Shown: positions 7,130 to 62,368 of the stretch, piece after piece | Numbering within the stretch: position 1 is the stretch's first letter | Layout of the letters: each line of letters starts with the position of its first letter | Assembly (NCBI GenBank): GCA_964016885.1 | Contig: OZ024740.1 | Span: forward strand, 175,646,001-175,710,000 | Reading direction: 5' to 3' | DNA length: 64,000 nucleotides | Source of the DNA: Eledone cirrhosa | Lineage: Eukaryota | The notes under the pieces: generated by a model | Seen by the model: the letters and a program-made list of their open reading frames with translations, nothing else | The model's database searches: none | What the model was told of the DNA's origin: nothing | Position numbers and translations under genes: made by a program

Positions 7130-7302
7130 TATAGTTATAGGAATAACCAAAGAGTGCTTAGAAATACATTGTTTTATTAGCTAACAGTGTTTCATCCATA
7201 CACCATGGCAGGAATCATTCCTGCCATGGTGTATGGATGAAACACTGTTAGCTAATAAAACAATGTATTTCTAAGCACTCTTTGGTTATTCCTATAACTA
7301 TA
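7130..7302. repeat. Perfect fold-back palindrome (~86 bp arms, 1-nt loop at 7216) derived from an HHR-bearing pLTR end
   Basis: The right arm attcctgccatggtgtatggatGAAAcactGTTagctaataaaa and its continuation tataacggctct match the HHR element at 61903-62010. Confidence 0.9.
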
Positions 7303-7597
7303 ACGGCTCTATAGTATACTAGTTATCCTACATTGAACTAAAACCACACTGTCATACCAAGGGCTATATATCTGCATGTCTGGGCATATTGATATATTTG
7401 TCAACGAAATATATATATAGATATATATACATAGCCGCCGAAACGGTTTGAGCTCTGCCGCCTGGGTCTTGAACATTTTCCTATTACCCACTCTACTACC
7501 CTAACTATTGAGTACTCTGGTGCGTTATGGTACACCTGGTTAATTACCACACTTCCTTCGTTATATATATATATATATATATATATATATATATATA

Positions 7598-8268
7598 TAT
7601 GAAAGACGTAAAATAAGAAAGTTTTCAAACTTAAAAATTAACTTACTTACTAAAATTTTCACTCCAACTAATTAGTTTCTTTAATGGGATAAAGATAGTT
7701 ACGCAATGTAACCATCGAGAATTCATTACGTCATCAGGGAGTCTATTCTCAGCTAAGTCTCCAGGCAATGCGCGGACACTAGGGACTCATATAAAAATAA
7801 TAATTCATTGGATGGAACAGCTAGCGGGGACTAAATTCCATAGCACTGAAAAAGTTCACTGGCTCTGGTCAAGTGGCAGATTCTAAAGAATCAATCACGT
7901 GACACTGAGGCTAGTCAGAAGGAGTGGGATGGTATAATGACAAGAGCTTACTACTACTACAATGACTTAGTAGTGGATTTGGCAAGTTTGCTCAACAAAT
8001 AAATAATTTGGAGATAAATATAGAGAATTAGTATATTTACCAACATATGCGTACAGATGTACACTAATGCTAGAAAATACACAAGTTATGTCATAGTACC
8101 TAGGTGGTTCAATGCAGGAGGATGCAGAACAATTATATGAAAGACATAAAATAAGAAAATTTAAAAAATTAAAAATTAACTTACTTACTAAAATTTTCAC
8201 TAAAATTTTCACATTACAGAAAATAATTAGTTGGAGTGAAAATTTTAGTAAGTAAGTTAATTTTTAAT
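7598..8268 (-). mobile_element. ORF-less retrozyme-like unit (~540 bp period) with HHR, terminal direct repeat and 5' inverted piece
   Basis: Direct repeat atatgaaagac.taaaataagaaaa...aattaacttacttactaaaattttcact at 7598 and 8136; inverted copy at 8225-8268. Confidence 0.8.
7661..7742 (-). ncRNA. Type I hammerhead ribozyme with long stem II region
   Basis: Minus strand actcc-CTGATGA-(~50 nt)-GAAA-ctaatta-GTT-ggagt. Confidence 0.75.
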
Positions 8269-10250
8269 ACATAGACGAATGTATTATATATATATATATA
8301 TATATATATATATATATATTGTCTCCCCTTTTGACAAGATAGCTTGCTTCAATTATAAAGAGATATTCTTGTTAAGCCTCTCTGTTTATATCTATGCTAA
8401 GTGTCTGGTGAAGAGATGCAGGTATATTGTCGAGCCGATGCAACACGGCCCATCAAATACTCCCACTGCAGAGGGTCTTTGAGAAATCGCAGGAGCTTTA
8501 CCAAGAATTCTATGCTTGTTTCGAAGGCCTTGAAAAAGTATATGACCGCGTTCCACGAGATATGATGCGAAATGTTTGCAGGAGTATGGGATATACCAAT
8601 GTCCTAATATTTGTATTCGGATAAATGGAACTAAATCTAAAACATTCAATATAGGAGTCGTACTCCGCCAAGGCTGCGTACTCTCATCTCTCCTGTTAAT
8701 GACCTTCAGGAACAGGATTGGCATGCACAACCGGACTCCAAGTGATATCAAGACTTATGGGTATAGGATCAGCTGGCTGGAATTTGTGGACGAGATGGTA
8801 TTACTTATCTTGTCAGAAGTGATCTCCGACATGCATTTGATAGGTTTGTTGCCGAGTGCTGCATGGCTGGAATGAAAATGAGTGCTGCAAAGACTGAATC
8901 ACTCGTCCTCTCAAGGAATTCTGCGTATTGCACACTCTATGGGAGTGAAGACCCACTGAAGGAGGAAGAGAAGTTCAGATATTTCGGGCCCGTGTACACG
9001 AGTAATAGAAGGTATGAGGCTGAACTAAGTACAAGAATTGCAGGAGTTGATGCTCTAATGCGCCAGCTTCTACATTCGGTCATTAGAAGCAAATGTAAGT
9101 GTAAAAGCCAAACTCGTAATCGATCGAGAAATACAACGAGGTTCCTCCGAAGGATTTTTAGAATAACGTTACTCGATAGAGTGCCTAGCCCGGAGATCAG
9201 AGAGTTGCTCCAGGTAGAGCCGCTACTCCTATGAATTGTAATGTCACAGCTCTAGTAGTACGGACATGTGTTTAGTATTTTACGAACAAAAACCAGCCGG
9301 TAGGAGGCACAGGGTTTGAAGACCCCGTGCATAATGGTTGGATAGTATTCAGGAGCTCGGTTGGTCTCGCTCAAGAATCCAGCCAGATCCATTGGAGCTG
9401 ATTTCGTCTCACAGGACCCGGTGGAAAGCATGCTTGACGAATCTGCCGCACGACCCTCCCATGCATAAGTGGGCAAAGAAGAAGAAGAAGAAGTAGAGGA
9501 AGAAGATCGTCTTAATATGTAAACACGTGCTATTATTAACATCTATATATGTCCGCGCATGTGTAATAATATATGCATACATATATATATATATATATAT
9601 ATATATATATACATACACACACACACATGTCAACCATATACATACATAGCGGGTGGAAGTAGATTACATAATCGAAGGCATAAAGTCATTTCCCATCAAT
9701 ATTTTTTAAGGAAAGCAATCTATTACGACTGAACCACAGAATTTTTGGCATGAAAATTATGGGATATCGATTTAAAAGTCAGTCGATCTCATCTATCTAA
9801 ACTATTTCAACCAATAGTATAAAAAGAATGAAAATAATATAAATTAAAATAAAATAGACTTTCTCTCGTTACAAAAAACAAACTAACAATAAAACTAGAA
9901 ATATAATCTAATGCAAGACATACATAATAAATATATAACTACACAAATAAATACAAGAAATCTCCGCTAACAGACTGGCCATTATCGATATGTTAGAACT
10001 GGCCGACCAATATCGATCAGAAAGCGAAATGAATCTGTGAAAAACCTCATGTGAATAAAATAGCGGTAAAAGGAAGCCGAATGAAAAGTTGTTTGTGAAG
10101 AAAAGTGATATTATGTAAGTGGAAAATCACTGGTAGAAGGCAAATGAAAGAATCACATAATTTGGGTGTGTCTATACATGATATATGTATGAACACATTC
10201 GTCTATGTATGTATGTATATATGTATGTATGTATGTATGTATGTATGTAT

Positions 10251-10742
10251 GTTTTCTCTTTCTCTTAATTTCGAGTATATTTTTTTGACCGGCCACCTTC
10301 CTGGTGGCAAGGTTGTAAAAGAAAAGAAATTGTCATCCCTTGAATCGCAAGAATGTTTTGCATATTTTGAAGGTGCCAGCTATCGCAGCCATTTGTAGAC
10401 TATGAATTAGGGAGCTGCGCTTTTTGTCCGCAAATCCAAGTTCGGTCATACTTTGGTCCAAGCGGGTTGGTATATAACCCGTAGCACCAATAATGATGCG
10501 TATGAAGCTAAAGGTGTATCTTGGATACTGGATTTGTAAGCTCCTCATCAATGGTCCGTAGATGTCCTCCTCCTGTATTTTTCTGACAACGTTTACATCA
10601 AGTGGGCAGCTGATCTCCACAACAGAACACGTTTTCAATGTGTGGTCCCAAACTACAATATCAGGCCGGTTGTGCTTTAATTTGGTGGCAGTTTTTATTT
10701 TCAGATTCCACCAGTATTCCTTAGTGCCATCTGTCTCATAAA
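10251..10742 (-). mobile_element. 3' fragment of R4/Dong-like non-LTR retrotransposon (restriction-like endonuclease)
   Basis: WWNLKIKTATKLKHNRPDIVVWD...VVEISCP...IIIGATG carries the RPD...E RLE motif. Flanked on both sides by (TATG)n. Confidence 0.85.
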
Positions 10743-11046
10743 TTATGTATGTATGTATGTATGTATGTATGTATGTATGTATGTATGTATGTATGTATGT
10801 ATGTATGTATGTATGTATGTATGTTTGTAAGTGTGTGTGTATATGTGTATGCATGTATGTATGTATGCCTGTACACTCTATATGTGTGTCCCTGTATGTA
10901 TGTATGTTTGTATGTATGCATGTATGCCTGTATGTACGTATGTATCTAAGCACGTATGTATGTATATGTATGTATGCACGTATCTATGTATGTATGCATG
11001 TATGCATGTATGTATGTGTCTATGTGTGTATGTATGTATGTATGTA

Positions 11047-60650: not shown

Positions 60651-61189
60651 TTTCACTATTTTATATGCCTCGTTATTAATGTCGTTACACACACACACAC
60701 ACACATATATATATATATATATATATATATATATATATATATATATATATATATATATATATATATATATATATATATATATATATATATATTTGTGTGT
60801 ATATATATATATATGTATATATATATATAGAGAGAAAAATACTGCAGGTAGCGCATGGATATCATGTAATAAAATGAGTCCCTCATCAGTGATTTGCCGA
60901 CGAACATAGATATTTCATTGCATTAAATATATATATATAGGGAAAAAAAGATGTGTAGTACACCTCGGTTATTTTTCATTTTGTAAAAAAAACCTCACTT
61001 TCTAATATATAATATATATATATATATAGAAAGGCTACGGAATGAAACAGTTCTAATCCTGTAGAACCCTTTCTATATTAAATATTTATACTCACCTTTG
61101 TATTGAGTACCTTACTTACTGTGGTTACCCCTGATTGAACCCTGGATAAACTCATATATATATAAATATATATATATATGGAGAATATG

Positions 61190-61665
61190 ATGGCTGAATA
61201 GTTGCTAGTTAAGTTAAGCTTAAAACTGAAATGAGAATAAGAAGAAAGCAAGAACGGGGGGGGCGTTCCTCAACAGTTTTCTACTGGTGGTCTCAGATAT
61301 TTCAACGCTTTAAAGACAATATATCTACCCCCAAAGCGTTCAATTACTGGGTAAGTTATTGGGAAAACGGAGGAGGGAGAAAAGGAAAATAAAATAGAAG
61401 GGAAAGGGGGAAGAAAAGAGAAAACAGCAAAAAACAAAACCGAGGAATATGCAAGCAACTGAAGGTTAGAAAATCCAAGACCACAGTGGTAACAGAACTT
61501 AAGTTCGAGAGCGTGTGATCGAACGAAAAGACACGACTGACCCAAGCGGGTGTAAGTGAGAAAGGGACTGCAAGAAGGTCAGGCGAGGGAAACCTTGAGG
61601 TGGCCGGAAGAGAGGGGGTGAACGAAAGTGAGAGGGAGAAAGGGAGAGGGCGAAGAGTAGATAGT
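61190..61665 (-). repeat. Diverged copy of the pyrimidine-rich dispersed repeat
   Basis: taagttattggga and gaacttaagttcga are shared with 1058-1070 and 32138-32260. Confidence 0.5.
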
Positions 61666-61902
61666 AACGAAACCATTGTTTATACTTTTTGCTTTTGTGT
61701 GCCATCACTTGCATCTGCATCTTGTGAAAAAATCTGCCTGTACCCTAGTATTTAGCTGTAGTGCTTAATAACTACACCAACATGTACTCTCTCCTTATTC
61801 GACATCTCCAATCTGCCGATTTTTACCCTCTATTGTATTCCAATTGTTTGTGTGACTAATCTTGGTAGAGCTTATACTCAGCACTGTGTTTTTATTTATT
61901 AA

Positions 61903-61947
61903 GCTCTGATGATTCCTGTCCAACAGTATGGATGAAACATTGTCAGC
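61903..61947 (+). ncRNA. Type I hammerhead ribozyme
   Basis: gct-CTGATGA-ttcctgtccaacagtatggat-GAAA-catt-GTC-agc-aaataaa. Confidence 0.8.
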
Positions 61948-61953
61948 AAATAA

Positions 61954-62368
61954 AAACTGTTTGAGTATGTAAGCGTTCTTTGATTTCTTTTAAATATAAC
62001 GGCTCTGTTCTCGTACATTGAGCTTATACAATACTGTCAAAATACGACACGGTACATGTGTGTTTATGCACATACGCTCCGTGCTCTACGTAAATATGTA
62101 TGTATATATACATACATATATATATATATATATATATATATATATATATATATATATATATATATATATATATATATATATATATATATATATATACACA
62201 TATGTATGTATATATACATACATATTTACGTAGAGCACGGAGCGTATGTGCATAAACACACATCATGTACCGTGTCGTATTTTGACAGTATTGTATAAGC
62301 TCAATGTACGAGAACAGAGCCGTTATATGTAAAAGAAATCAAAGAACGCTTACATACTCAAACAGTTT
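61954..62368. repeat. ~160-bp inverted repeats (tail-to-tail pLTR ends) around a (TA)n spacer
   Basis: aaactgtttgagtatgtaagcg...ctacgtaaatatg (TA)n catatttacgtag...catactcaaacagttt. Confidence 0.9.

Follow-up and report, generated by a model that had tools for sequence, protein, structure and literature searches.

Hairpin insertions of Penelope-like elements: in several families the centres pile up at the predicted RNA start

One important question raised by this locus is how ten fold-back palindromes came to lie within one window (the whole stretch of DNA that was analysed, 64 kb), and whether the hammerhead ribozyme (HHR) motifs near their turns decide where the strands meet. All ten inverted repeats of the original prediction were present at their predicted positions (10/10). 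Arm mismatches in nine of them were 0/82, 0/85, 2/49, 2/44, 2/260, 2/200, 8/101, 3/88 and 1/140, and the tenth, a 34-bp palindrome (58341–58374), had arms of 15 bp. With simple repeats masked, arms of at least 25 nt and at least 85% identity gave nine fold-backs in the window and none in ten shuffled windows. Further inverted repeats were found at 28798–29872 (a larger, three-armed insertion), 56426–57149, 7631–8268, 11380–11551 and 17119–17235. The predicted density of about one hairpin per 6 kb holds for the window (about one per 6–7 kb) but not for the genome: 39 evenly spaced 10-kb pieces (the 40th, satellite, was left out) contained 25 fold-backs, i.e. one per 15.6 kb, which is about half the density of the window. 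Scaled from about one per 16 kb, the genome holds about 190,000 hairpins. Contact with (TA)n was seen in 19 of the 25 sampled fold-backs, on exactly one side in 18 and on both sides in 1, leaving 6 with none. Docking in (TA)n was likewise found for the family ends of the window, but not for the 34-bp palindrome, which had no match among the other loci compared and is probably not part of this hairpin system.

Eight of the ten hairpins are head-to-head pairs of the 5'-truncated ends of high-copy elements, and the predicted asymmetry, with one arm longer than the other, was seen again. At 7.2 kb, the short arm of family A (7134–7216, minus strand), running from an internal end site to the HHR core, meets a long arm (7216–7415, plus strand) that begins inside CUGAUGA and has a tail of ~120 nt up to (TA)n; behind this tail lies a solo stump of family K, without a canonical HHR core (7432–7561, plus). 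The family B long arm (29920–30121, minus; ~110-nt tail) turns within a stem II of ~97 nt into a short arm that reaches 7 nt further 5' than its partner (30121–30213, plus). The turn of family C also lies in stem II, between a long arm with a curtailed tail and an HHR-like fold of variant core (32684–32785, minus) and a short arm that extends up to (TA)n (32786–32834, plus). The family D short arm (37169–37220, minus) ends at the predicted transcription start, the first base of stem I, next to a long arm with the HHR core and the tail (37221–37348, plus). Family G, a low-copy family with 11 candidates, has a long arm with an uncertain HHR-like core and a tail of ~46 nt (37385–37743, minus) and a short arm up to (TA)n (37744–38000, plus). 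The long arm of family F (52050–52380, minus; ~130-nt tail) ends at the predicted start and is followed by a 3-nt junction (52381–52383), where each arm has a cap-like G at −1 in place of the C of continuing copies, and by a short arm up to (TA)n with a full HHR and a stem II of ~110 nt (52384–52582, plus). Family E is older, with 8% arm divergence, and its short arm (56023–56123, minus) and long arm (56128–56403, plus; ~160-nt tail) turn within a long stem II. Family H, at 58020–58212, is a tRNA-derived unit without HHR, with a long arm (57985–58110, minus; ~35–40-nt tail) and a short arm up to (TA)n (58111–58211, plus), and its relatives carry a tRNA-Ser-like unit. The palindrome at 61954–62368 does not turn at an HHR either: two family I ends, one with an intact HHR motif (61870–62094, plus; core 61906–61937) and a second one (62225–62367, minus), are arranged tail-to-tail across the (TA)n tract at 62094–62225. 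Families A and I are kin (the families at 7.2 and 62.0 kb are 70–80% alike), and those at 32.8 and 37.2 kb recur within the window, so that the hairpin sequences are not mutually unrelated as had been supposed.

The ends of families A, B, C, D and F have pieces of ORF upstream on the same strand. Hydra-type ORFs were found in this position for family A in loci L069, L071 and L080, and the HHR and tail run on into an ORF in families B (locus L166, with RWK), D (L401) and F (L240). These five families are thus tied, on sequence grounds, to Hydra-type Penelope ORFs; such a tie was seen for none of families E, G, H, I and K. In the window, a broken ORF of this type (32944–35393, plus) contains DKT, YRDD, CxCX5C and a GIY-YIG-like end. 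Pfam matched GIY-YIG to it with E = 0.0014 and 19.3 bits, under the cut-off of 22.6, and no Pfam family matched its RT part. The motifs RWK, DKT and CxCX5C, as defined in PMC8557442, were found in the translations of 24023–24436 (minus), 32944–33384, 34947–35393 and 59065–59898 (minus). A type I HHR motif, whose core and stems could be traced in the letters, was recognized in families A, B, D, E, F and I, the core being variant in family C and no canonical one being found in families H and K; an Rfam scan of the window gave no hammerhead among the 150 matches listed of 178, only sub-threshold microRNA-type matches from repeats.

The hairpins are insertions of endonuclease-bearing (EN+) Penelope-like elements (PLEs). 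The original prediction was right that terminal-repeat ends sit in (TA)n beside an inverted copy; this layout was already known. The accessible portions of Craig et al. 2021 (PMC8557442) and Arkhipova et al. 2013 (PMC3846280) describe the EN+ unit as a pLTR, an inverted 5'-truncated copy and a one-sided tail, and note TATA plus an initiator-like site in one rotifer pLTR. The insertions analysed here share with that unit the head-to-head inverted truncated copy, the tail at one end, the HHR in the pLTR and the palindromic inverted junctions. In contrast to the tails of 30–40 nt described in those portions, tails are longer here in most families (35–160 nt), and in contrast to the units described there these are mostly ORF-less stumps of 150–550 bp, about one per 16 kb. 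RWK, DKT, CxCX5C, the C-terminal GIY-YIG-like domain, the (TA)n targets and the canonical HHRs resemble the Hydra clade (e.g. Hydra-1_Obim in the available text of PMC8557442), a likeness at the level of motifs; unlike the canonical Hydra HHRs given there, one family here has a variant core, one has no HHR core and one is tRNA-derived. Several of the families, set beside named Hydra elements by motifs only, may be undescribed. A MITE or fold-back DNA transposon was discarded, since the junctions differ from copy to copy and the ends are asymmetric, whereas a hairpin moving as one unit would keep its centre and have symmetric ends in every copy.

Each family has two fixed outer ends, an internal end site on one arm and the tail on the other. 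Exact genome matches to the fixed short-arm end numbered 150 in family A, where this end abuts (TA)n, and 3493 in family D. An inverted partner was present for 38/70 anchored arms in A and 36/70 in D (after two re-assignments in D), whereas 32/70 and 34/70, respectively, stood alone; 31 of the 54 partner-less arms examined continued into simple repeat. As the short-arm end also terminates these partner-less insertions, the short arm was likely primed independently. The tail was found on exactly one arm in 35 of 38 D pairs and in all 15 A pairs. In 20/38 A and 14/34 D pairs the 5' reach of the short arm exceeded that of its tail-bearing partner by at least 5 nt; hence, in 34 of the 72 A and D pairs each arm has sequence that its partner lacks, and neither can be a copy of the other. 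Long arms consisting only of tail (A 10/38, D 5/34) stopped at the short-arm start. The inner ends of the two arms were coupled: 8/38 A pairs ended within 25 nt of each other (1.3 expected by permutation), as did 8/10 D pairs away from the start within 50 nt (2.4 expected). Samples of top matches, which favour long, similar copies, served for anatomy only. D arms also differed by G-to-A at +12 (6/17 versus 0/18), but only among the top matches to a query with this change, so that the difference was put down to selection.

The distribution of the inner ends does not follow the ribozyme core. Among 70 short-arm ends of family D, 22 fell in −1 to +5 (the 5' edge of stem I), 9 in +6 to +16, 5 in −50 to −2 and only 1 in +17 to +46, i.e. 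stems II and III. Family A breakpoints showed no HHR preference (10/70 in the HHR, 2 of them in stem II, and 11 in the next 64 nt) and no clear pile-up; a cluster of ends near −74 was noted post hoc. In the HHR-less family K, which was found only in flanks, 42/56 arms ended in −4 to +6, and in family C 15/41 arms piled up at an initiator-like site. The indifference of family A to the HHR, and the pile-up of family K without one, give no support to the proposed stall at the ribozyme. Families D, K, C and F all show a pile-up at an initiator-like site. Families D, E, B, K and J have a TATA-like box between −34 and −28; no such box was found in F and C. Thus, in several families the centres pile up at the predicted RNA start of the element and not inside the ribozyme. 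In D, E, F and C this predicted start falls on the 5' edge of stem I, which leaves K and J (2 hairpins) to tell the two apart. We infer that the pile-up site would be a capped transcription start at which stem I of the HHR begins. The turn was predicted inside or just 5' of an HHR, and often it is, because the HHR fills the first 50–140 nt of a template copied from sites just downstream; the part of the claim that placed it usually in stem II is true only at 30.1, 32.8 and 56.1 kb, where two of the three stems II are 70–100 nt long, and at 37.2 and 52.2 kb it lies at the 5' edge of stem I.

The letter at −1 bears on the cap. At 13 double run-off junctions, 13 of the 19 non-C arm ends had G at this position (p = 2e-5), single-base junctions being ambiguous. 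The signal is not clean, as only 3/45 solo arms of family F, and 0/6 in family E, had this G. Hand tallies of this letter (15 G of 19 non-C in D; 16/73 in F) were set aside because in many cases the other arm supplies the template for the G. A tally of flank-found family D copies was rejected, as divergent subfamilies end the extension early, and the matching tally for family F gave no copies. The C-A-G insert that recurs at junctions may have been templated, over a short stretch, by an arm motif close by. The HHR cleavage site is a weak candidate for the RNA 5' end (3 arms near +16 in A; 3/34 D long arms within 4 nt), and a retrozyme, a tandem HHR unit with cleavage-defined ends, was rejected, as the arms span the cleavage site and so few D long arms start near it.

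The pile-up at the predicted start indicates that the hairpins likely arise when two DNA copies, each started on its own, are joined, and not when one copy folds back. With a probability of roughly two in three, both copies are cDNAs of a single uncleaved RNA, begun at two of its internal sites with the two target strands as primers and joined at its 5' end. Both cut strands of the (TA)n target would serve as primers on a single element RNA, and each cDNA would run toward the RNA 5' end, where the two would be joined. If the tail-primed cDNA halted at the other one, non-overlapping pieces would result, as in L1 twin priming; if it displaced the other cDNA, a palindrome would be formed. Many copies would derive from the upstream pLTR and hence be short, ending in or just before the HHR. 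During L1 twin priming the second target strand primes internally and the 3' ends are joined, the second primer site is variable and the pieces are mostly non-overlapping, whereas here that site is constant, and full overlap of the pieces, common in these families, yields palindromes. The two putative internal RT start sites that bracket the tail at the pLTR-ORF junction resemble those of Poseidon_Ac (PAc), for which cutting and extension of both target strands, two internal RT starts and use of uncleaved RNA in vitro are reported in the accessible part of Frangieh et al. 2024 (PMC11167929); PAc, however, belongs to another clade, and inverted copies and junctions are not explained in that part. 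Against two primers on one RNA, later deletions at the palindrome centres could create some of the neither-contained pairs, 15/38 A pairs are compatible with snap-back of a single cDNA, and the joining of a few arms to another family's end (L081, L079 and L446) goes beyond what one RNA explains.

These cross-family joins would be accommodated if the two primers acted on two separate RNAs held by a protein dimer, both copies running off at the shared start. Strand displacement would then be unnecessary, and PAc is a predicted dimer in the available text of PMC11167929. This arrangement is nevertheless unlikely, since the coupling of inner ends persists hundreds of bases away from the start and tail-only arms stop where the short arm begins, both of which fit one molecule. 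Both arms also agreed at a diagnostic polymorphic site in 34/35 D pairs, although two RNAs of one locus would agree as well.

In the original prediction, RT is held up by the structured ribozyme, and the unfinished cDNA turns back to serve as its own template. Three turns of the window do lie in stem II, the inner ends are coupled, the two arms share one source, one D junction (L394) switches to the sense strand through a stem I duplicate, and self-priming has been put forward for such junctions in the accessible portion of PMC3846280. That proposal relies on an antisense template, while the junctions found here favour two primers and run-off at the start. Moreover, RT travels 3' to 5' on RNA, so a stall is expected at the 3' foot of the structure, yet the D arms pass stems III and II and stop at the far 5' edge. 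The scarcity of D ends within these stems, the lack of an HHR preference in family A, the like behaviour of family K, the 34/72 pairs that cannot be self-copies, the solo insertions sharing the short-arm end, and the 1-nt loop that the 7.2 kb junction would require largely refute ribozyme-stall snap-back as a general route, and we regard it as improbable.

More improbable still is a real run-off after which host repair makes many of the palindromes, in that the double-stranded cDNA end folds back, or is replicated or fused, and the short arm is trimmed to a TA-like site: the junction inserts resemble end-joining products and fold-backs from broken L1 ends appear in the accessible text of 10.1101/2024.12.14.628481, but solo insertions with the same end, tail-only partners and short arms reaching further 5' are left unexplained. 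Amplification or assembly chimeras are hardly credible: although reads and contigs aligned to 37140–38010 and 56010–58400 matched most bins (one raw run gave no matches, and contigs left one bin over the 34-bp palindrome uncovered) with no piece bridging a junction among the matches listed, chimeras would give identical arms at random places, whereas here the arms differ by up to 8%, the ends are fixed and family-specific, the one-tail rule is kept, and copies on many chromosomes have differing junctions.

The origin of the inverted ends of PLEs is called open in the available text of PMC8557442, and a search of the freely readable literature and one supplement listed no paper deriving them from two primers run off at the start. 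Events on the order of 190,000 in one genome make breakpoint statistics able to separate the models, and the existing PAc system offers a direct test. In L1 insertions, an extra G marks capped 5' ends at full-length 5' ends, according to the accessible part of PMC11702581. A broader reading, which we put forward tentatively and which may well overreach, is that PLEs form their inverted ends by twin priming at fixed sites of a single capped, uncleaved RNA, with displacement of a strand. The hairpin centres would then map transcription starts, an extra G would be the copied cap, the first transcribed base would open the ribozyme, and the ~190,000 hairpins left behind would be a possible main source of dsRNA for host editing. 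In octopus, loci that form near-perfect dsRNA make up an unusually large fraction, as stated in the available portion of PMC5625713. Should the host be an octopod, the hairpins could explain this large fraction, a link that we infer.

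Self-BLAST of the window confirmed all ten inverted repeats of the original prediction. When arms of at least 25 nt with at least 85% identity were required and simple repeats were masked, nine fold-backs were found in the window and none in ten shuffled windows. In a genome sample of 39 evenly spaced 10-kb pieces (one further piece, a satellite, was left out) 25 fold-backs were detected, that is 1 per 15.6 kb, which scales to about 190,000 in the genome (Poisson range roughly 125,000–285,000). The window, located on the largest contig of this 3.0-Gb genome, has about twice the fold-back density of the sample. 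One genome locus, L139, contained 10 kb of very AT-rich satellite (20% GC) with inverted similarity inside.

Searches with the long (tail-bearing) arms of eight hairpins gave 692–2704 first-look candidates in seven families and 11 in one. Pieces of Penelope-like element (PLE) ORFs lie upstream, on the same strand, of families A (7.2 kb), B (30.1 kb), C (32.8 kb), D (37.2 kb) and F (52.2 kb). In B, D and F the hammerhead ribozyme (HHR) and tail run on into the ORF start, so this region is also the upstream terminal repeat (pLTR) of the transcript. RWK, DKT and CxCX5C, which the part of PMC8557442 consulted gives as marks of the (TA)n-targeting Hydra clade, were present in the window ORFs, with weak Pfam support. 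Type I HHR motifs were readable from the sequence in A, B, D, E (56.1 kb), F and I (62.0 kb), and family C has a variant core; in the C copies seen (window 32684–32834; L262–L290) all three stems are kept and A replaces the core U4. Stem II is lengthened to 70–110 nt in the motifs of B, F and E. A CTCTR-type motif follows the short-arm end by a few bases in the tails of families A, B, C, D, F and I (noted at window 7069–7560).

In every family the short arm stops at a site inside the element; the long arm bears a tail of 35–160 nt. The short-arm end adjoining (TA)n gave 150 exact matches for family A and 3493 for family D, and 70 places of each were taken in list order (one A place, L036/L100, was counted twice, and two D places, L410/L411, look duplicated). 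An inverted partner was present for 38 of the 70 A arms and 36 of the 70 D arms; the rest were solo, and 31 of 54 solo arms examined continue into simple repeat. Exactly one tail was found in 35 of 38 head-to-head pairs of D and in all 15 of A. These hairpins match the unit of inverted copy plus tail described in PMC8557442, and the two fixed outer ends correspond to the two internal starts of reverse transcriptase (RT) reported for Poseidon_Ac in PMC11167929, as far as the consulted sections of both papers go.

The hairpins had been explained by RT stalling at the HHR and copying its own nascent cDNA, with turns lying in or beside the ribozyme. In the window the turns at 7.2, 30.1, 32.8 and 56.1 kb fall inside the HHR span, and those at 37.2 and 52.2 kb fall at a predicted transcription start (+1); the 37.4-kb turn lies upstream of an uncertain HHR-like core, and three hairpins are other things. 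Copies taken from the upstream pLTR measure only 50–330 nt, which would explain why turns lie in or next to the HHR with such frequency. Short-arm ends of family A (n = 70) showed no preference for the HHR, with 10 in its zone (2 in stem II), 11 in the next 64 nt, and then 5, 8 and 4. Those of family D (n = 70) gathered at the first base of stem I, with 22 in −1 to +5, 9 in +6 to +16, 1 in +17 to +46 and 5 in −50 to −2. This site is marked by an initiator-like sequence and, at −30, a TATA box. RT encounters stems III and II before reaching it and goes through both, so the pattern reads as run-off and not as stalling. Family K, seen in flanks only and without a canonical HHR core, had 42 of 56 arms ending in −4 to +6 of a similar site, as did 15 of 41 arms of family C (each hairpin contributing both arms), and a like pile-up at the predicted start was seen in the top-hit sample of family F. 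D, E, B, K and a further family, J, each have a TATA-like box at −28 to −34; families F and C lack one. Judged from these sequence features, the pile-up site is a putative transcription start.

Family K (window 7432–7561; L249, L256, L424) is very abundant, consists mostly of hairpins or stumps from the initiator-like site, shares a tail motif with family D and may hold a decayed HHR. In family H (58.1 kb) no HHR motif was found; its source is a tRNA-Ser-like unit (called in 3 of 6 loci), and the family takes the form of a tandem unit of about 250 nt that includes this tRNA-like part and has PLE-type insertion ends (window 57985–58211; L310, L313, L328, L332). By hand count, 13 of 30 top-hit loci have their turn at the T-arm's 3′ foot, a clustering that could come from genuine RT stalling or from microhomology (TA or self-complementary).

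A self-copy has to be contained in its template, yet 20 of 38 A pairs (from hand-transcribed coordinates) and 14 of 34 D pairs have a short arm that extends beyond the tail-bearing one by 5 nt or more on the 5′ side, a class that may include later deletions at the centres. The long arm was the further one in 15 A and 6 D pairs, and the ends agreed within 4 nt in 3 and 14. Among the pairs whose short arm reaches further, the long arm is little beyond the tail in 10 (A) and 5 (D), and these resemble L1 twin priming. With the absence of HHR preference in A, the passage of stems III and II in D and the many non-contained pairs, self-copying after a stall is mostly wrong as an explanation. That the palindromes are chimeric artefacts is argued against by arm divergence of up to 8%, the fixed outer ends and the one-tail rule.

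Inner ends were coupled, with 8 of 38 A pairs within 25 nt (1.3 by permutation) and 8 of 10 D pairs away from the start within 50 nt (2.4 by permutation), and in all but one of 35 pairs (34 of 35) the two arms matched each other at a polymorphic position. This fits a single RNA serving both primers, except in a few cross-family joins (L081, L079, L446), where one family's short arm meets another family's sense end head-to-head with no (TA)n in between. The arms span the HHR cleavage site, and for this reason the RNA is taken as uncleaved. The hairpins are likely the product of two cDNAs primed from both target strands on such an RNA and joined toward the RNA's 5′ end. The endonuclease would cut (TA)n on both strands, and each cut 3′ end would prime at one of two internal sites. 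Both cDNAs would grow along the RNA toward its 5′ end, up to a break or to the capped start. The cDNA primed at the tail would halt at the other or displace it, and the two ends would be joined via microhomology or by the addition of a few bases.

Thirteen junctions have both arms reaching +1 and two or more letters between them; their −1 letters comprise 13 G, 7 C (C being the genomic letter), 3 A and 3 T, and the 52.2-kb window junction has G at −1 on each arm. Capped ends of L1 insertions are marked by an extra G, according to the part of PMC11702581 consulted, and the extra G here is suggestive of a cap trace. Against this reading stand its presence in 3 of 45 solo F arms and 0 of 6 in E, and the possibility that a three-letter insert seen repeatedly was copied from a template during repair.

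The 62.0-kb repeat is arranged tail-to-tail around (TA)n, and the 99% similarity between its arms suggests a single event with nicks set far apart. Inverted pairs that are arranged tail-to-tail or centred on TA lie at window 61870–62367, 11380–11551 and 17119–17235 and at L114 and L128. Elsewhere in the window, an ORF at 3446–4324 is presumably a Tc1/mariner-like transposase, an abundant SINE-like repeat, partly in a 251-bp tandem, has copies at 26833–27555, 39990–40199, 43440–43813 and 48116–48625, and further retroelement remnants at 10333–10983 (minus strand) and 49780–50688 show an endonuclease-like end and a PLE-like RT from another clade.

A two-primer run-off account of PLE inversions was not found in the literature searched, and preprint 10.64898/2026.07.22.740005 held nothing relevant at keyword level. 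In the portions consulted, PMC3846280 proposes self-priming for inverted copies and mentions one pLTR with a TATA and an initiator, PMC4209133 records paired HHRs on opposite strands, and PMC2377424 describes an internal TATA-less promoter in the fly element. The head-to-head architecture of PLEs is already known (PMC8557442; PMC3846280, in the parts consulted). The hairpins of E. cirrhosa are real, of a kind already known, and offer a way to test a still unsettled stage in the formation of inverted PLE ends.
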